Positions 5,491-20,174 are shown, counted from the first letter of the stretch. The stretch is DNA of 52,997 bases from a virus (IMGVR_UViG_2585427779_000013:1-52997); one strand, 5' to 3'. The notes: a model not told the origin generated them from the sequence alone. Numbers and translations: made by a program.

Positions 5491-6543
5491 TCAAAGAACG
5501 CCAGCGCGTGTATCACGTAGCGTTTTTGGTTTAAGCAGGAAATCAAGTGTCGCAGTAAAGCCATTGCCGAAGTAAAAATCTGAAGCCGTGTTTTTGAACG
5601 TTTCGAAGTAGGCGACAAAGCCGTTAATGCTTTTGTCTTTCAGGTAGTCAGTGAACGCATAGATCTTGCGTTCAAGATCCCGATCCAGTTCGGCAGGTGG
5701 TAACAGGCCGTCAAACGTGCTGTTAAATGCTTCCACCACGTCGGCAGCGTTTACAGTAGCTGATAGCTTGCGCCATTGTTCAGCATCAGCCAAATACCCA
5801 TCAAACTTAGTTACCCGGCAAATGTTGATAGGCTTAGGTGTTCCGCCACGGCTACGCCATTGCGTTAAAGCCCACTCAATCACTAATGTGATCTCATCCT
5901 CCGTATACGCTTTACGTGTTTTTGTTTCTGTCAGTAGTTCTACGAATGGCTTAGCGTCACGACATTTGCATCCTGCCTTGTCGTTGTAGAAGGCAAGGCA
6001 ACGCAATGCCGCTTCGTTTACGCCATCCTGATTGACCATTTTTTGTTCATTTTCGACAATACACGAAGTGTATATATCTTTTTCTCTTTCTTTTTCTACT
6101 TCTAATTCTAATTCATGACCCTTTCCTGACCCGGTCATGACCCTATCATGACCTTTTTGTGTTGGATTGATTAACTTTTCTAATTTTAATTGCTCCTTCG
6201 CTGTGTTTATGGCGGCCCTGTAAGCGCTTTTAGAAGTCATTGATTGGTCCAGCCTTTTCAATAACTTTAAACAAGTTATGTGGCCTTGAGAACATTCAAA
6301 CAAACCAATTTCGATGAAGTATTTCATCATTTCTTCTATACGTTTTTCAGTAGATCCGACGTTTCGCGCAATTATTCTTGCGTCATGTCGTAGGTCAAAA
6401 GTTAGATTGTGCTGATCTACGTCATAAGTTATTAGTTCTAGGCAATACCAATAAAGCCCGTACCCTTCCAGGCCATAATCTAATAAAACGTTTTGAAGTT
6501 TTTCATCGCGGTTCGCATCGCTATCATGCTTAAACCACTTCAT
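5491..6543 (-). CDS. phage replication initiation protein (O-like replisome organizer)
   Basis: 350 aa; N-terminus MKWFKHDSDANRDEKL is the hallmark of phage replisome-organizer N-domains by recall; lies immediately upstream of helicase module. Confidence 0.75.
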   Translation of the reverse strand: MKWFKHDSDANRDEKLQNVLLDYGLEGYGLYWYCLELITYDVDQHNLTFDLRHDARIIARNVGSTEKRIEEMMKYFIEIGLFECSQGHITCLKLLKRLDQSMTSKSAYRAAINTAKEQLKLEKLINPTQKGHDRVMTGSGKGHELELEVEKEREKDIYTSCIVENEQKMVNQDGVNEAALRCLAFYNDKAGCKCRDAKPFVELLTETKTRKAYTEDEITLVIEWALTQWRSRGGTPKPINICRVTKFDGYLADAEQWRKLSATVNAADVVEAFNSTFDGLLPPAELDRDLERKIYAFTDYLKDKSINGFVAYFETFKNTASDFYFGNGFTATLDFLLKPKTLRDTRAGVL

Positions 6544-6546
6544 AGA

Positions 6547-6801
6547 TCATTCCTCCGGCAATGCAATGTCATAAATGTCGCCGTATTCGTCAGCGCGTTT
6601 AATGAATCCTTTGCGGATCAATGAATTTAATGCGTCAACAGCAGTATGCAGTGGCAGTTCGCACACTTTTGCGATCTCTTCGCGTGAAGCATGTGCGCGG
6701 CCTTTGTTGTCTGCCTTTTCTGCAAACGCAATTAAGACAAGTTTTTGGATCGGGCTGTTAAGTTTTACGTTCCATGCTTCATTCATCATGTGCATACTCA
6801 T
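6547..6801 (-). CDS. winged-helix/HTH DNA-binding protein in Cro/CII position (84 aa)
   Basis: HTH segment ASREEIAKVCELPLHTAVDALNSLIRKGFI; first gene of minus-strand operon divergent from repressor; GGAGA RBS. Confidence 0.65.
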   Translation of the reverse strand: MSMHMMNEAWNVKLNSPIQKLVLIAFAEKADNKGRAHASREEIAKVCELPLHTAVDALNSLIRKGFIKRADEYGDIYDIALPEE

Positions 6802-7107
6802 CTTGTTTTTCTCCTATGGTTAGAGTGAACGCGCGGGCGGGCATCCCATTAGCATTAGATAGCAGTGACTGACCGCTCAACAGATCCCGCCGTTGCGTGA
6901 TATTTGTTTTTCGCTTCGCAGCGACACCGGATTTTTAAAGAGCTTAAGGTAAGTGCCTTTTTGTGCCTTCCGTTATCTTTTTCCTTGCGTCTTTGCAAGT
7001 ATGGCCTTACCTTGTCTGCAAGTTTACAAAATGGAATTTTAAGATCAAGGCTTAAAATACACGTTTTGTGACTTGCATCAAACTTTTTGAGGTTATAGGG
7101 TAGCGAC
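6802..7107. promoter_or_regulatory. divergent immunity-region control region (candidate PR/PRM-like promoters and operators)
   Basis: 306-bp non-coding gap between divergent repressor and Cro-position gene; repeated half-site TGCAAGT at 6994-7000 and 7017-7023 and inverted as ACTTGCA at 7071-7077; inverted repeat AAGGTAAG/CTTACCTT; motif TTTACAAAATGG at 7023-7034. Confidence 0.5.
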
Positions 7108-7755
7108 ATGAAAACAAAATGGTATGACTTAGCAAAGCAGCTCATGCGGGCGCAGGGCATGAGTCAGGATTCACTCGCAGATCTCATGGGGATAACTAAA
7201 GGCGGCCTGTCACACTGGCTTAACGGTCGCCGCGAGCCAAATCTTGAAGATATTGCGCGGATTATGCGGGCGCTTGGGCGTCGTCAGTTCACTGTTACAC
7301 ATGATGGTATGGTCATTGATGATTCTGTTTCTAATACACTTCAGGCCGCACCGCCGCGTGATTTAGGTAGTTACCCGGTTATTGACTGGAAGGACACAGT
7401 AAACAATATGGATGACACAAGGCGATCAGCATTACCACACGTTACGACTAGCGTTATTTGTTCAGATGATAGTTACTGGCTGGTTGCCAAAGGTGAATCA
7501 ATGAACGCGCCGCAGGGGTTAAGCATCCCGGCGGGGACGATGATACTTGTTGACCCGCACGCGCCAGCTATTGACGGCAAACTGGTTATAGCCCAGCTTG
7601 AGGAAGGGCAGATACCGACGTTTAAACAGTTGATTATTGATGGAGGTCAAAGGCTTTTACGTTCGCTGAATCCGCTGTATCCGCCAATCCCTATGAATCC
7701 AGAATCAAAAATTATAGGCGTGGTGGTTGATGCGAAGATCGTAACCCTGCCATAA
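7108..7755 (+). CDS. CI-like phage repressor (HTH plus LexA/S24 peptidase domain)
   Basis: 215 aa; N-terminal XRE-type HTH; C-terminal S24 autoproteolysis motifs (AKGESM serine, TFKQL lysine). Confidence 0.85.
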   Translation: MKTKWYDLAKQLMRAQGMSQDSLADLMGITKGGLSHWLNGRREPNLEDIARIMRALGRRQFTVTHDGMVIDDSVSNTLQAAPPRDLGSYPVIDWKDTVNNMDDTRRSALPHVTTSVICSDDSYWLVAKGESMNAPQGLSIPAGTMILVDPHAPAIDGKLVIAQLEEGQIPTFKQLIIDGGQRLLRSLNPLYPPIPMNPESKIIGVVVDAKIVTLP

Positions 7756-7760
7756 ACATT

Positions 7761-7786
7761 AGCCGCCGAATGGCGGCTTTTCTTTG
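7761..7786 (+). terminator. rho-independent terminator after repressor gene
   Basis: Hairpin AGCCGCC-GAAT-GGCGGCT followed by TTTTCTTTG. Confidence 0.6.
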
Positions 7787-7878
7787 CCTGGAAAACACCA
7801 AAACGTAAACAGAAAACGTTATTTATTATTTAAATATCAATGGTATATAAAATATTATAAAAAAGTATACAAAATGGA

Positions 7879-7907
7879 TTGACTCGGTGTTTTACGGGGC
7901 GTATATT
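7879..7907 (+). promoter_or_regulatory. candidate sigma70 promoter (PL-like)
   Basis: TTGACT (7879-7884), 17-bp spacer, TATATT (7902-7907); motif TATACAAAATGG ends 2 bp upstream of the -35. Confidence 0.45.
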
Positions 7908-8255
7908 GCGAATCAAAGGAAGGGCGCAGGTAACAAAAGCAACTTCCTGGCACTTTAAAAATCAGGCTTAACACCTTGTCAACCGTGGAGTAACTCCCCG
8001 ATGGGGGACCGAAAGCGGCACTGATAACAAGGCGCATGGGGTGTTTAAAGCGTTACATCCCCCACGAAACCGCACGCAAGGCGACGAGTCAGCTTGCTTG
8101 GAGTGAGCAAGGTCACGCCGGGAACGGCGATGATTGCGGGATTAGTTGAAAGATGTTAAGCCGCTCATTAACAATCTGGTCAGCCGCTGGAAGTGCGGCA
8201 ATTAACGAAGATGATTTTTTATTAAGTATCATCAAGGATATACGGAGATCAGATT

Positions 8256-8546
8256 ATGAGCGTTACAATTATATATGGTAAATGTGATAGCAAAATGAAT
8301 GCCAGGGAACGCAGAAGGATAAAAAGAGAAAACGAAAGAAAATCATCACCTGCAATCAATAAAACAGACAATGTGGATAAAGCTATTCGATTTGCAAACG
8401 AGGAAAGATGCAAACCAAATAGCATTAAAGAACGTCGCAAAGGATCAGTAAAATGGTATACGGAAAATGAAAGCGGCAGCTACTACCACGCAACGCAACC
8501 ACGCCATTTAGGGGAAAAACCCCTAGATAAAGTCCGCTATCATTAA
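8256..8546 (+). CDS. putative N-like antitermination protein (arginine-rich motif)
   Basis: 96 aa; segment MNARERRRIKRENERK resembles the ARM of lambda N (MDAQTRRRERRAEKQ) by recall; GGAG RBS before 8256; alternative start at ATG 8295 would place the ARM at the N-terminus. Confidence 0.45.
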   Translation: MSVTIIYGKCDSKMNARERRRIKRENERKSSPAINKTDNVDKAIRFANEERCKPNSIKERRKGSVKWYTENESGSYYHATQPRHLGEKPLDKVRYH

Positions 8547-8695
8547 TACAAAATGTAAACATCCGGAGATGACATTATGGTTATTCAGGCGCTTCAATTC
8601 AAACTGGCAGTAGCGGAAATGCTTCACGATGCCGAAATGTGGAGCGCCGCGAATAAAGCCTTATACATAGTGTTAACAGCGAAGGAGGCTAGTTA

Positions 8696-9226
8696 ATGTC
8701 TTATTCAAAACATGGAATGACGCACACAAAACTTTATGAAGTTTTTAAAGGAATGAAAACGAGATGCAGGAAAACCGATAAGAATCCACGAAATAAACAC
8801 TATAAGGATAAGAATATAACTATATGTGATGAATGGTTGAATGATTCATCAAAGTTTATTGAGTGGGCTTTCAATAACGGTTATCAGGAAGGGTTAGAGA
8901 TAGACAGAATTGATAACGACAAAGGTTATTCACCGGATAATTGCCGATGGGTTACACATGCTGAAAACATGCGCAATACATGTAGAACTACGATGTTAAC
9001 AGTGAGCGGGGAAACTAACACAATACATTATTTTTCCGAAAAATACGGTATATGTGAACGCACCATATATACAAGATTACGTCGCGGCTGGAGTCATGAG
9101 GCCGCTGTACTTCTTCCTTTAAGAAAGGGGAAACGATGTGAAGAAAGATTTATACAAAAAATTGTGGCTAATTCAGCAACAATTAAAAGCGCCAAAATCT
9201 CAGCGCAATTCATACGGTGGATATAA
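8696..9226 (+). CDS. HNH homing endonuclease
   Basis: 176 aa; pattern FKGMKTRC...ICDEW...IDRIDNDKGYSPDNCRWVTHAENMRN typical of phage HNH endonucleases; 3' end overlaps erf by 89 nt. Confidence 0.65.
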   Translation: MSYSKHGMTHTKLYEVFKGMKTRCRKTDKNPRNKHYKDKNITICDEWLNDSSKFIEWAFNNGYQEGLEIDRIDNDKGYSPDNCRWVTHAENMRNTCRTTMLTVSGETNTIHYFSEKYGICERTIYTRLRRGWSHEAAVLLPLRKGKRCEERFIQKIVANSATIKSAKISAQFIRWI

Positions 9227-9779
9227 TTACAGATCGGCGGAGGATATTTTAGAGGCTGTTAAGCCTTTATTGGAAGGCATTACGTTAACGCTTAATGATG
9301 AAGTGGTGTTAATTGGTGATCGTTATTACATTAAAGCAACAGCGATATTGAGCGATGGTGAAGATGAAATAACGGCTACTGCTTTCGCCCGCGAGGAAAA
9401 AGAACAAAAAGGCATGTCGTCTGGTCAGTTAACTGGCGCGACTTCTTCTTATGCTCGCAAATATTGTTTAAACGGCTTGTTCTGTATCGACGACGCAAAA
9501 GATCTGGATAGCGACGCTTACGCGAAGCAGACAGGCCAGCAGCCGCGACAACAGAAAAACCCACCAAAACAACAACCGCAGCAGAAGAAAGCGCCGCCAA
9601 ATCCTGATGAAGTATTAGCACGTTTCTGTGATGCAGCAGCGAAAGCGCAGGACGCTAACAAGCTGCGTGAAATATTTGGCAAATGCTGGAAATTACTACC
9701 GGAAGGATCGGAGCATCGAATCAAGGCAAAAGATGTTTATGACATCCGGGTAGCAGAGCTTAACGGGGAGATGGGTTAA
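9138..9779 (+). CDS. erf: Erf-family single-strand annealing recombinase
   Basis: GTG start with GGGG RBS; N-terminal region closely resembles P22 Erf (…YRSAEDILEAVKPLL…IGDRYYIKATA…TGATSSYARKYCLNGLF) by recall. Confidence 0.85.
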   Translation: MKKDLYKKLWLIQQQLKAPKSQRNSYGGYNYRSAEDILEAVKPLLEGITLTLNDEVVLIGDRYYIKATAILSDGEDEITATAFAREEKEQKGMSSGQLTGATSSYARKYCLNGLFCIDDAKDLDSDAYAKQTGQQPRQQKNPPKQQPQQKKAPPNPDEVLARFCDAAAKAQDANKLREIFGKCWKLLPEGSEHRIKAKDVYDIRVAELNGEMG

Positions 9780-10716: not shown

Positions 10717-10826
10717 ATCTTGCAAAAATTGCCGCATTGCTTGCGGCTTTATCTATCGCCGTGCTGTATCTCAGCGTGTCGCTTTATATCACGGTAGCGA
10801 TCATTAAACTCATTACTAACATGTGA
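10713..10826 (+). CDS. small hydrophobic membrane peptide (37 aa)
   Basis: ATGA overlap with upstream stop; MNLAKIAALLAALSIAVLYLSVSLYITVAIIKLITNM single TM helix. Confidence 0.4.
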   Translation: MNLAKIAALLAALSIAVLYLSVSLYITVAIIKLITNM

Positions 10827-11740: not shown

Positions 11741-12361
11741 ATGAAAGACATCAAAACGGCTTATTCACTCGGCAGCGAAGGCATGTTAATCACTCGCTAC
11801 ACTGAAGACGCAAGTTTTCATGAAGTTGAAATTAAAGATTATCACGAAGTATTGAAAGATATGGAAGCTGGCAAGTATGACGCTGATTTGAATCTGGCGT
11901 TACAGATTGTTGATATTGTGATGGATGCGTCGATCCGCGATTATATGTCTTTAAATGCTGAAGAAAAAACTGCCGTAGCTCGTTATGTCTTCTGCCTTAC
12001 TTTCGTAAAACGAATGGAAGAGGAATATGGACGCGTACCAGTGCCGGAAGAGGTTGATCCGCTCGCGTTCGGAAGTGCTGTTATTTTCCCGTTGAACAAG
12101 GATCAGCTTGGTAGTGTTTCACTGCATTCTATGCGCGGCCTGATGAAAAACATCTTTGAAGTTAAGATGTTGCAGAAATGCATTGAGGAAGGCCACAAAG
12201 AAGAAGAAGTAAAAGCGTTTATGCCGCTGTTTTACGGTGAAATGGTTGGCAATGATATGCGCGCAAATGATTTCGGTGTGCAGGCGGCTATCGCTGTGCT
12301 TAATGATGCACGGAAAAACGCACAGCCGATGCCTGAACAGGAAAAACGTGTACTGCATTAA
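11741..12361 (+). CDS. hypothetical protein (206 aa)
   Basis: Long ORF with good coding continuity. Confidence 0.5.
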   Translation: MKDIKTAYSLGSEGMLITRYTEDASFHEVEIKDYHEVLKDMEAGKYDADLNLALQIVDIVMDASIRDYMSLNAEEKTAVARYVFCLTFVKRMEEEYGRVPVPEEVDPLAFGSAVIFPLNKDQLGSVSLHSMRGLMKNIFEVKMLQKCIEEGHKEEEVKAFMPLFYGEMVGNDMRANDFGVQAAIAVLNDARKNAQPMPEQEKRVLH

Positions 12362-14658: not shown

Positions 14659-15142
14659 CAGGTTATTGGCCTGCGTTTATGTCGCCGTTTTCGTGATCAT
14701 CAACCTTATTGTTAACCATTGCGGCCCGTGGGTGATTCCGATCACTACGGTAGCCGCTGTGTGTGTCAATATGATGATCCGCGACTTCCTGTTATATGAC
14801 GGCGGCCTGAAATGGTCGGCTACAACATGCGCCGCCGCTGGCGCAATCACTGTGCTGATAAATTACGACGCCGGAATGGTGGCGATCGCGTCATTCGTTG
14901 CTGTTGTTTCCGGTGCGCTTATTTCTGGCGGCGTTTACCGGGTTTTGCCTGGTGATTTTGATTCGAAACGCTGGCCTGCCAATATAGCGTCAGCCATTGG
15001 CGATGCGTTGATTTTTCCTACGCTATCGTTCATGGCGTTTATGCCGGAAATATCAGCGATGCAATTCATCTCAAAAATGGCAGCGGTAACGGTGATCACT
15101 ATCATCATGCGCCGCTATTTCACGTTTGAGGGCAGAAAATGA
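14639..15142 (+). CDS. polytopic membrane protein (167 aa), possibly transporter-like
   Basis: About 5 hydrophobic helices; sits between the two methyltransferase genes; family not recognised. Confidence 0.45.
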   Translation: MERVTIDRLLACVYVAVFVIINLIVNHCGPWVIPITTVAAVCVNMMIRDFLLYDGGLKWSATTCAAAGAITVLINYDAGMVAIASFVAVVSGALISGGVYRVLPGDFDSKRWPANIASAIGDALIFPTLSFMAFMPEISAMQFISKMAAVTVITIIMRRYFTFEGRK

Positions 15143-15897: not shown

Positions 15898-16056
15898 AGT
15901 TTACAAAATGGCGTCATTGCGTGATATGGATCACATAATGGCGCTTTTCGCCTTGTTCTGGTGTATCCATTTTGTATACTTCAAGCAAACAAAATGCTCT
16001 TTAAAAATCCGGCAGCGCTGAAATGCGTAGAAATCACCTGAAAAGGAGAGAGCATT

Positions 16057-16247: not shown

Positions 16248-16853
16248 ATGCAAAACCCTAAAAAACCCATAAGACGCCGTTGCAAATGCTGCGGCGTTTT
16301 TTTTGAGCCTAAATATCACAATCAAACGTGGTGCAGCGATGAATGTCTGGAAGAACTGAAGTTTGACCAGCTATGCCGCGACCGTGAGAAGGCTATGAAG
16401 GCTATGGAGCGGAAGAAACGCCGTGATAGCCAGAGGGAAGAACGCAACCGGAAGCGTAAACAGTTAAATCCGCGTAGTTATTGGATCAAGCAAGTTCAAA
16501 ACGTATTTAACGCATATATTCGCGAACGTGATGCGCGGTTGCCGTGTATATCCTGCGGGACTTACTACGGTGAGCAATGCGGGTGGGATGCGGGCCATTA
16601 CAGGACGGTTGCCGCCGCAGGACACCTTCGCTTTAACGAGGATAATTGCCATAAACAATGCAGGCACTGCAACCAGACATTAGACGGAAACATAGGAGGG
16701 TATCGCCCGGCACTGATTCGAAAAATTGGCCTCGCCAGGGTGGTAGCGCTGGAAAACAACAATGATACGCATAAATGGACGATCGCAGAATGTAAGGAGC
16801 TAATAAACATCTATCAGGCTAAATTGGACGCTTTAAGGAGAAAGGCGGCATGA
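16248..16853 (+). CDS. ninG: NinG/Rap-family recombination protein
   Basis: Conserved Cys pattern and strong similarity to lambda NinG (RRRC…PRSYWIKQ…LPCISCGT…WDAGHYR…LRFNE…HKQC) by recall; start set at ATG 16248 (track ORF begins upstream). Confidence 0.8.
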   Translation: MQNPKKPIRRRCKCCGVFFEPKYHNQTWCSDECLEELKFDQLCRDREKAMKAMERKKRRDSQREERNRKRKQLNPRSYWIKQVQNVFNAYIRERDARLPCISCGTYYGEQCGWDAGHYRTVAAAGHLRFNEDNCHKQCRHCNQTLDGNIGGYRPALIRKIGLARVVALENNNDTHKWTIAECKELINIYQAKLDALRRKAA

Positions 16854-17257: not shown

Positions 17258-17436
17258 AAAACGAAGTTAAAGATCTGCAAATAGATATTCAGCGCGACGA
17301 GCGTGATTTAGAGACGGTCCGACAAATCCAGGCTTTCCACATGCGCGAATTACTTGCGCTGAAAGAGTTCGAAAGAAAGCTGGTGCAATCCATTTCTGAT
17401 CGTAAACGGCTGGCGGCACGTTATGAGGGCAAATAA
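17254..17436 (+). CDS. hypothetical coiled-coil protein (60 aa)
   Basis: ATGA-coupled ORF between rusA and Q-like gene. Confidence 0.4.
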   Translation: MKNEVKDLQIDIQRDERDLETVRQIQAFHMRELLALKEFERKLVQSISDRKRLAARYEGK

Positions 17437-18164
17437 TGAATTTAGAATCCATTCTAAAATTCCACTTTCCTAAATCACCGCGATTATCTGACGAAAGCCG
17501 GGGCACGTCCCCGGACGCTCTTAATACGACGGATGCGCTAACAGCTGCGGGTATGGCGCAATCGCGCGTAGAGCTTGGCTATAGCGCTTTTTTGGGAAAG
17601 ATGGAGCTATCACAAGCCGAAAAACATAAGGCCGTAGTTTTGCTTACAGAGCGTTTAAGGGCTATGGCAAAAGATTATGAATACGTTATGGAACTGGACG
17701 AGGCCAAACGCAATGATCTCATTATTCTTGTTGCCGTTTTCGCGTTTCGGGATTATTGCCAGAGTGCGGCGACCGAAAAAGTTTGCCCTAAGTGCGGCGG
17801 TAACGGGCTTTCACCACATCCATATTGTGAGTACGCATCGACAGTTTGCTCGCGGTGCGGCGGCAAAGGCTACGTTAAAAACCATTGCCAGCGGTGCAAG
17901 GGTCGTGGCGAAGTACCGGATAAAGCAGCCAGCGAGGCGGCGGAAATGCCAGTGTTCAAAACATGCCAGCACTGCGGCGGGCGCGGGTACTCGCGTTTCC
18001 CTGTAGATCTTGTCCGGCAGGCGGTTAATCAGCTTGTTTTCCCGGTAAGCCGATCAACATGGTGGAAGAAATACCGGGCTTTCTATGAAGACGCCATTGC
18101 TGAATTGTTCAAAGAAGAGGCGCGGGCTGACAACGAAATTAAACGAGTGACGCGGGGTGAATAA
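17436..18164 (+). CDS. putative late antiterminator (Q-like) with DnaJ-type zinc finger
   Basis: 242 aa; four CxxCxGxG repeats (CPKCGGNG, CSRCGGKG, CQRCKGRG, CQHCGGRG); located directly after ninG-rusA where lambdoid phages place Q. Confidence 0.45.
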   Translation: MNLESILKFHFPKSPRLSDESRGTSPDALNTTDALTAAGMAQSRVELGYSAFLGKMELSQAEKHKAVVLLTERLRAMAKDYEYVMELDEAKRNDLIILVAVFAFRDYCQSAATEKVCPKCGGNGLSPHPYCEYASTVCSRCGGKGYVKNHCQRCKGRGEVPDKAASEAAEMPVFKTCQHCGGRGYSRFPVDLVRQAVNQLVFPVSRSTWWKKYRAFYEDAIAELFKEEARADNEIKRVTRGE

Positions 18165-19940: not shown

Positions 19941-20174
19941 ATGCGTATTTATGAACACAAGCGGGATAAAACCCGCTTTTTTGTTCGTGCTGGCGTGGCG
20001 TACCAGTATCACGACTGCGGATATATTGAGGCGCTTGCTTACGACATGGATTTCGAACAAGAAAAAGAATGGTTTGACTTTAAGATTTACCGTAAGCGCA
20101 AGCCAACGCGTGACGAACGACACGCTATCCGGGACTTTTTAATCAGCATAGACCGCTGGGAGGCAGACGAATGA
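19941..20174 (+). CDS. hypothetical small protein (77 aa)
   Basis: ORF in packed cluster. Confidence 0.4.
   Translation: MRIYEHKRDKTRFFVRAGVAYQYHDCGYIEALAYDMDFEQEKEWFDFKIYRKRKPTRDERHAIRDFLISIDRWEADE

Follow-up and report, generated by a model that had tools for sequence, protein, structure and literature searches.

The probable immediate-early antitermination locus of an mEp021-type coliphage and a structured insertion in its leader

The gp17 locus and its early promoter

The locus described here lies in a 52,997-nucleotide (nt) viral stretch, IMGVR_UViG_2585427779_000013 (the window, meaning the whole of that stretch), whose 7780-8600 region we regard with high confidence as the immediate-early promoter, leader and N-like antiterminator gene of an mEp021-type coliphage. 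The repressor gene is followed by its terminator, a promoter, a nut site, the N-like gene, a Kil-like open reading frame (ORF), Erf and SSB, a gene order that resembles those of the P22 and lambda PL operons. DNA searches with 7780-8600 returned MagusPhagus (99.0% identity), mEp010 (96.2%), mEp515 (94.8%) and mEp021 (93.0%), as well as mEp013, mEp044 and mEp554, which match over only 76% of the length; judged by sequence, the window belongs to a temperate coliphage of the mEp021 group (mEp "immunity I"). Of 5426 complete E. coli genomes, 35 carry the leader, each of them once and in every case on the chromosome.

The 96-residue ORF downstream of the leader is the orthologue of mEp021 gp17 (93% identity, in the same syntenic place between the repressor gene and the kil-like and erf genes) and is labelled 'anti-termination protein N-like' in MagusPhagus. 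According to PMC11893012 (Negrete-Mendez et al. 2025), which cites Valencia-Toxqui et al. 2023 (Arch Virol 168:92), mEp021 Gp17 is a lambda-N-like, Nus-dependent early antitermination protein with three nut sites as its targets, one upstream of the repressor gene gp15 (nutL), one upstream of gp17 (nutR1) and one beyond a cytosine methyltransferase gene (nutR2). The same text has arginines 17, 19, 20 and 24 of Gp17 conserved in all 48 genomes and credits mEp013, mEp044 and mEp554 with all three sites. A sequence-only reading of this DNA had proposed an N/nut-type antitermination system here, a proposal that orthology, a PHROG 271 match and the function published for mEp021 all bear out; as a mechanism it is already known from that phage. 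The window differs from mEp021 in being another isolate or prophage and in carrying, after the Kil-like ORF, an HNH endonuclease gene that mEp021 lacks; the conserved arginines, the neighbouring genes and the relative positions of the three nut sites are the same, with nutL and nutR2 identical or nearly so in sequence.

Support for the early promoter rests on its conservation pattern, because promoter-like matches in the scanned span (6500-9500) are not above chance (10 versus 7.0 +/- 2.6). TTGACT-17-TATATT, the promoter named in the sequence-only reading, is the best sigma-70 match in that span (10 of 12 positions). Among 37 distinct relatives scored for the promoter columns the -10 hexamer is invariant and the -35 is changed at one position in one sequence, with 11 of the 17 spacer columns varying; conserved hexamers around a variable spacer are the pattern that a working promoter would leave, and transcription is predicted to start at about 7914-7915. 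The promoter does lie downstream of the repressor gene, beyond an intrinsic terminator that is also annotated in mEp021, mEp010 and mEp013 and whose variation among the 37 relatives falls in loop columns, plus one stem end in one sequence. It is also directly abutted, as had been noticed, by a recurrent motif with 14 of 16 columns invariant among the same relatives and a copy beside the -35 in the distant relatives L087 and L088, a candidate binding site of the repressor or another regulator.

The wider motif (AAGTW)TACAAAATGG matches the window 24 times at up to one mismatch against 5.5 expected, a count reached by none of 100 shuffles. It occurs in early and late regions alike (3978, 7025, 7868, 15902, 15976(-), 21571/21606(-), 38928/38963(-), 42473(-)/42535, 50866(-)/50890 and others), often in inverted pairs 25-70 bp apart, and could serve as the operator of the repressor or as the target of some other DNA-binding protein.

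Table 1. Features of the gp17 locus and associated elements (window coordinates)
Feature	Position	Strand	Sequence or basis
nutL	6911-6943	-	boxA GCTCTTTAAAAATC (6943 to 6930), spacer CGGTG, boxB TCGCT-GCGA-AGCGA (6924 to 6911)
Repressor gene	7108-7755		Helix-turn-helix and Peptidase_S24
Intrinsic terminator of repressor transcript	7761-7785 (hairpin 7761-7778)	+	AGCCGCC-GAAT-GGCGGCT, then T run
Recurrent motif	7863-7878	+	AAGTATACAAAATGGA; directly adjoins -35
Early sigma-70 promoter of gp17 operon	7879-7907	+	TTGACT 7879-7884, 17-nt spacer, TATATT 7902-7907
5' leader hairpin	7918-7947	+	GGAAG 7918-7922 pairs with CTTCC 7943-7947; variable 5' part
boxA-like copy 1	7950-7963	+	GCACTTTAAAAATC; without boxB; long-form leaders only
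Closed structured RNA module, 199 nt	7964-8162	+	Predicted base helix 7965-7973 with 8154-8162
Module internal hairpins (predicted)	7995-8008, 8040-8063, 8093-8111, 8116-8129	+	8093-8111 covarying; 8116-8129 GGAA/GAAA tetraloop
gp16, 37-residue ORF annotated in mEp021 and mEp010	8036-8149	+	Probably not a gene
nutR1 boxA	8163-8176	+	GCTCATTAACAATC; one mismatch from rrn-type GCTCTTTAACAA of short-form relatives
nutR1 boxB	8183-8199	+	GCCGC-TGGAAGT-GCGGC, 6 nt after boxA
AU-rich hairpin	8210-8233	+	GATGAT...ATCATC; between nutR1 and ribosome-binding site
Shine-Dalgarno and start	8244-8258	+	GGAG 8244-8247, ATG 8256-8258
gp17 orthologue, 96-residue N-like antiterminator	8256-8546	+	Orthology and published mEp021 function
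Gp17 arginine-rich motif	8298-8342 (residues 15-29)	+	NARERRRIKRENERK
Kil-like ORF, 39 residues	8577-8696		Directly after gp17
HNH endonuclease ORF, 176 residues	8696-9226		PHROG 3377, E 1.7e-48; between Kil-like ORF and erf
nutR2	15996-16028	+	boxA GCTCTTTAAAAATC 15996-16009, spacer CGGCA, boxB GCGC-TGAAAT-GCGT 16015-16028
Q-like late regulator gene	17436-18164		Annotation
Candidate NusB-S10 target sequences			GCACUUUAAAAA, GCUCAUUAACAA, GCUCUUUAACAA

The nut sites and Gp17

The pattern GCWCWTTAAMAATC has four occurrences in the window against 0.35 expected by chance, at 6930-6943 (minus strand), 7950-7963, 8163-8176 and 15996-16009, and three of the four stand at the relative nut positions published for mEp021. 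Boxes of this type and the hairpins downstream of them were tabulated over 87 loci. A hairpin begins 3-6 nt after every boxA-type site save three exceptions, namely the 7950 type (70 loci), one unrelated match with 2 mismatches, and the L024 allele, in which the boxB stem has a mismatch. At least eight different compensating boxB stems were found, differing fully in sequence between alleles and sites with pairing always kept (GCCGC/GCGGC, GCTAC/GTAGC, TGCAC/GTGCA, GCGC/GCGT, ACGC/GCGT and TCGCT/AGCGA; at 60-68% Gp17 identity also GCAC/GTGC, GCTC/GAGC and TCGC/GCGA). The loops (U-GAAA-U/A, U-GCGA-A, U-GUGA-A, U-GCAA-U) are GNRA tetraloops closed by U-U or U-A, and nutL has the loop variants GTGA and GCAA among relatives. 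Covarying stem and loop pattern together make good comparative evidence for a boxB.

We took as a nut site a boxA near GCUCUUUAACAA followed closely by a covarying hairpin with a GNRA-like loop, and found this combination at 8163-8199, nutL and nutR2. Every relative has the boxA at 8163-8176, even where Gp17 identity is down to 60-69% (as GCTCTTTAACAATC in the short-form leaders described below and GCTCATTAACAATC in the window), and the hairpin following it is predicted in every fold; comparison thus singles out 8163-8199, the site common to all relatives, as the presumptive working nutR1. In mEp021 the distance from the 8163-type boxA down to the boxA of nutR2 is 7947 bp, in agreement with the abstract of the original report, which reportedly puts nutR2 'more than 7.9 kbp' downstream of nutR1.

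The sequence-only reading missed this boxA and its hairpin, which lie about 200 bases downstream of the site that it favoured. It had pointed instead to a boxA-like GCACTTTAAAAA at 7960-7971 and a TCCCC-GATG-GGGGA hairpin at 8005-8018; both sequences exist, each 10 nt lower (7950-7961 and 7995-8008), and neither is the working nut site, the first having no boxB and the second not being one. That the working nut is nevertheless this upstream element, with a small leader hairpin such as 7995-8008 serving as boxB, seems to us very improbable. In its favour, GCACTTTAAAAATC is one base from the boxA of nutL and nutR2 and nearly invariant in long-form leaders. Yet none of 70 loci has a hairpin at 0-9 nt from it, against a spacing of 3-6 nt at nutL, nutR2 and the 8163 site; the block that contains it is absent from the short-form phages, mEp013 and probably mEp044 and mEp554 included; and mEp021 itself has an additional A within the element. 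The GATG loop, moreover, is neither A-rich nor GNRA-like and varies freely (GATG, AATG, GCTG, GATT), and the TCCCC/GGGGA hairpin was rejected as a boxB for its wrong spacing and its variable, non-GNRA loop.

Gp17 carries the arginine-rich stretch MNARERRRIKRENERK at residues 14-29, as had been read from the sequence, and has R17, R19, R20 and R24; R17, R20 and R24 do not vary across 13 family members down to 62% identity, and R19 hardly does. Conserved parts comprise an N-terminal M-x-x-x-I-x-x-G, the core N-A-R-x-x-R-x-x-K-R and a C-terminal KWY...ENESGNY...PR.LGE.PLDKVRYH. Gp17's arginine-rich motif (ARM) does not lie at the extreme N terminus. Met14 was rejected as the true start, as this residue is M, L, I or A in relatives and has no Shine-Dalgarno sequence; it is not conserved, and the ARM is therefore internal, after a conserved 13-residue segment. 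Residues 1-95 match PHROG 271, 'anti-termination protein N-like' (E 1.3e-13), an annotation that, like PHROG annotations generally, is not experimental; the distant members P0027 and P0028 match it too. The family is small (31 clusters, none named) and confined to some E. coli strains and phage contigs, and scans of species-representative genomes with Gp17 peptides and then with an alignment found no relatives.

Several observations temper the identification of this locus as an N/nut system. Gp17 scores 15.9 bits against Pfam N_peptide (PF25694; E 0.019), below the curated cut-off of 27.9; it has no detectable similarity to lambda N by BLASTP (E 11); phmmer against all PDB chains matched no solved N protein; and an exhaustive profile search of 1.84 billion proteins gave only 4 matches, two of them in the Gp17 family, the others being P0033 and P0032. 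What 'N-like' describes is accordingly how the protein functions, how it is built and where PHROG clustering places it; homology is not demonstrable. Among loops that are otherwise of GNRA type, that of the window's nutR1 (UGGAAGU) stands apart, and the boxA of long-form leaders has a U-to-A change at position 5. The antitermination experiments concern mEp021 and none this exact sequence, and the coordinates that we give for the published nutR1, which correspond to mEp021 positions 12225-12261, are presumptive, having been set by comparison with relatives.

As to the two outlying matches, P0033 (115 residues) has the same layout as Gp17 (IIYG, an arginine-rich stretch, then KWY...PLDRIRY), a sign that the family may extend further, though very sparsely; the match in P0032 is at residues 2203-2250 inside a 3778-residue protein.

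A structured module in the leader

The leader spans about 341 nt (about 7915 to 8255), with a GC content of 0.51-0.57 over 7925-8149 versus 0.31-0.41 in its flanks, in agreement with the GC-richer untranslated stretch of roughly 340 nt first proposed. Aligned over 42 IMG/VR contigs, three phages and five prophages, it takes two forms. The window, mEp021, mEp010 and most others have the long form; the short form (L022, L030, L035-39, L043-45, L049, L050 and mEp013; probably also mEp044 and mEp554, from their matching 76% coverage) is without about 213 nt corresponding to window 7935-8147, and hence without the 7950-type boxA. The whole-leader fold has a z-score of -5.41 in the sense and -3.30 in the antisense orientation. 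At its 5' end the 7918-7947 helix of 5 pairs shows one G-C to G-U change and no broken pair; the 8210-8233 hairpin near its 3' end is deleted in L045-L048. ARAGORN found no tRNA or tmRNA in 7700-8400, and a minus-strand ORF at 7855-8037 was rejected, its frame being broken by indels in relatives.

A 9-bp helix is also predicted between 8173-8181 (the boxA 3' end and spacer) and 8247-8255 (from the Shine-Dalgarno sequence to the AUG), enclosing boxB. Every window-type leader, whether of the long or the short form, is predicted to form it, and the L045 allele is not; no compensatory changes for it were seen among the leader alleles. Such a helix could possibly link nut occupancy to gp17 translation.

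Exactly between the two boxA-like copies (7950-7963 and 8163-8176) sits a 199-nt module predicted to close on itself through a base helix, with a minimum free energy of -77.6 kcal/mol (z -3.76; as stable in none of 200 shuffles). The module and the 7950-7963 copy are an accessory insertion in the leader, carried by about four fifths of group members. Divergence from the window is 0-2.8% in most relatives and 5.6% in the prophages L046-48, as against 5-31% in the repressor gene and 3-43% in gp17 at third codon positions of the same genomes, so that the module changes at roughly a tenth of the pace of the synonymous sites beside it. Eight of the 12 changes in L046-48 fall in the 8093-8111 hairpin with all its pairs kept, comprising three double compensatory changes and one wobble change, and other variation in the module falls in predicted loops. 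The covariation is thin, in that only one helix varies informatively and all of its changes come from one lineage. At gathering thresholds Rfam 15 has no family anywhere in the window; at E up to 10, searches of 7750-8600 and 7945-8205 gave chance-level matches on the terminator and boxB only, and none in the module.

The module is thus either under strong constraint or recently spread by recombination, and the compensated hairpin favours constraint. That it is a recent and functionally neutral insertion, carried between conserved flanks by recombination and little diverged only for its youth, would fit its presence or absence as one block between two boxA-like direct repeats, its absence from all deeper-branching Gp17 alleles examined (60-69% identity) except L046-48, and its confinement to this phage group at one copy per genome in the phages and E. 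coli genomes searched (where it is not a repeated mobile element); 58 of its 69 predicted pairs, besides, never vary and so say nothing of structure. We consider this account unlikely in view of the contrast with flanking third codon positions, the preserved pairing in L046-48, the restriction of other variation to predicted loops, a fold more stable than its shuffles, and the module's presence in 31 of 35 E. coli prophages of the group. Less probable again is a precursor of a stable, processed, trans-acting small RNA, like DicF of prophage Qin or the c4/CI RNAs of the P1 and P4 leaders. A closed, stable and highly conserved domain at the 5' end of an early operon, ending exactly at a long base helix, is what such a precursor might look like; against it, no Rfam family matches, C4 and DicF included, no terminator follows the module, and comparison with the rest of the window on both strands found chance matches of 9-12 nt only, with no paralogue, no antisense target and no extended complementarity elsewhere in the phage.

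There is, finally, only a slight chance that the GC-rich part of the leader is translated, encoding the 37-residue gp16. This ORF is annotated in two GenBank records and is intact, with no indels, in 20 of 21 distinct long-form sequences. Its variable sites are nonetheless spread over codon positions 1, 2 and 3 as 7, 4 and 6, with no third-position excess; its stop codon is lost in L040; it has no usable Shine-Dalgarno sequence at the right spacing and no Pfam or PHROG family match; PGAP (RefSeq) called no gene there in 31 genomes; and a fifth of the group lacks it. In L046-48, moreover, 6 of its amino acids are changed; 5 of these changes cluster in 6 consecutive codons and coincide exactly with the compensatory stem changes of the hairpin. 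Because the module has no coding signature, gp16 is probably a spurious annotation.

Most likely, then, the module works in cis, as a structured RNA that affects how stable gp17 mRNA is or how it is processed or translated. An RNase III site in the lambda N leader reportedly tunes N translation, and that the module acts like that RNase III-sensitive leader is a guess by analogy. We tentatively suggest, at rather less than even odds, that the module, together with the boxA-like repeats, which its base helix would set next to each other, is an undescribed cis-acting RNA element of an N-like antitermination leader. One possibility is a switch controlled by RNase III or other processing that sets the amount of Gp17; another is a platform for loading Nus factors before nutR1 is transcribed. 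The module, the two leader forms and the extra boxA copy are not described in the available text of PMC11893012, and the module is the only element of the region that may be new.

Proposed mechanism and relation to known systems

In the absence of repression, host sigma-70 RNA polymerase would start at about 7914 from TTGACT-17-TATATT and transcribe the 341-nt leader and then gp17, so that the nutR1 RNA would emerge about 250 nt into the transcript. The internal ARM of the small, basic Gp17 would bind the nutR1 boxB on the nascent RNA and boxA would recruit NusB/S10; with NusA and NusG the polymerase would become termination-resistant and pass the terminators of the recombination and accessory genes towards nutR2 and the Q-like gene. 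Terminator-like hairpins lie along this path, for example at 10731-10747, 14935-14955, 16278-16296 and 19959-19978. On the minus strand nutL would serve the divergent replication operon in like manner. The sequence in which the complex assembles, and the contacts of the individual Nus factors, are modelled on lambda and P22 N; that the system antiterminates, needs the arginines and depends on Nus factors is taken from the mEp021 literature; and the sequence elements, their conservation and covariation and the orthology of Gp17 come from the present comparison.

With lambda N/nutL the system shares an arginine-rich peptide, a short hairpin that follows boxA by a few bases and has a GNRA-like loop, and a site in the antiterminator gene's own leader, downstream of the repressor gene on the same strand; Nus-factor dependence (from the literature) and a long structured leader are further common traits. 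It differs in the lack of detectable sequence homology between Gp17 and lambda N, in the internal position of the ARM, in having three nut sites and not two, in boxB loops that are U-GNRA-U/A tetraloops in the window's group and a GAAAA pentaloop in lambda, in a structured domain upstream of nut and not between nut and gene, and in the placing of the late regulator Q in the same operon as the N-like gene.

The likeness of the ARM to those of lambda and P22 N was remarked on in the sequence-only reading. The ARM core N-A-(K/R)-x-R-R-x-x-(R/K)-R does resemble, in register, GNAKTRRHERRRK of P22 gene 24 (N); this is a resemblance only, with no significant alignment, and the P22 boxB has the pentaloop GACAA. 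Shared with the P22 PL operon are the downstream Kil-like ORF, Erf and SSB, to which the annotations of two relatives, mEp021 and MagusPhagus, add an anti-RecBCD (Abc2-type) gene. 'PL-like', as the promoter had been called, is apt as to gene order, which fits the P22 and lambda PL operons; the published name of the site, however, is nutR1. The E. coli rrn boxA GCUCUUUAACAA recurs as an exact 12-mer in short-form nutR1 and with one change in the window, nutL and nutR2 carrying GCUCUUUAAAAA instead; in E. coli rrn the order is boxB-boxA-boxC, unlike the window, where boxA is coupled to a phage boxB placed downstream.

Some neighbouring features may be noted in their own right. The 8577-8696 ORF matches Pfam Lambda_Kil at E 1.8e-4, below the cut-off, PHROG 34942 at 3e-28 and PHROG 2055 'Kil' at 1.5e-3. 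The HNH ORF at 8696-9226 overlaps the start of erf, is absent at that position from mEp021, mEp010 and MagusPhagus and present there in prophage E21845/O/A, and has the look of a mobile insertion of the homing-endonuclease kind. After nutL, the leftward operon opens with a gene (6547-6801, minus strand) for an 84-residue winged-helix protein that matches a replication-initiator N-terminal domain (PHROG 4617, E 9e-19) and not a regulator of the Cro type; from the repressor gene to the replication genes no evident counterpart of cro was seen. Two further candidate promoters are built alike (-35 TTGATC or TTGTTC, then 16 nt of spacer ending in CCATTTTG, -10 TAAACT or TATACT), one at 7019-7046 (minus strand) upstream of nutL and one at 15953-15980 (plus strand), conserved in mEp021, about 16 nt upstream of the nutR2 boxA. 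Should the latter be real, nutR2 would be served by a promoter of its own and not solely by read-through from nutR1.

The system is another copy of a published antiterminator, in a phage group common in the human gut. Comparison across the group defines its nut pattern as a boxA separated by 3-6 nt from a stem of 4-6 bp that bears a U-GNRA-U/A loop and exists in many compensating versions, so that the same kind of RNA fold would be read by an ARM protein in which homology to lambda N is not detectable. The conserved insertion in its leader can be tested by deletion in phages for which genetic tools already exist.

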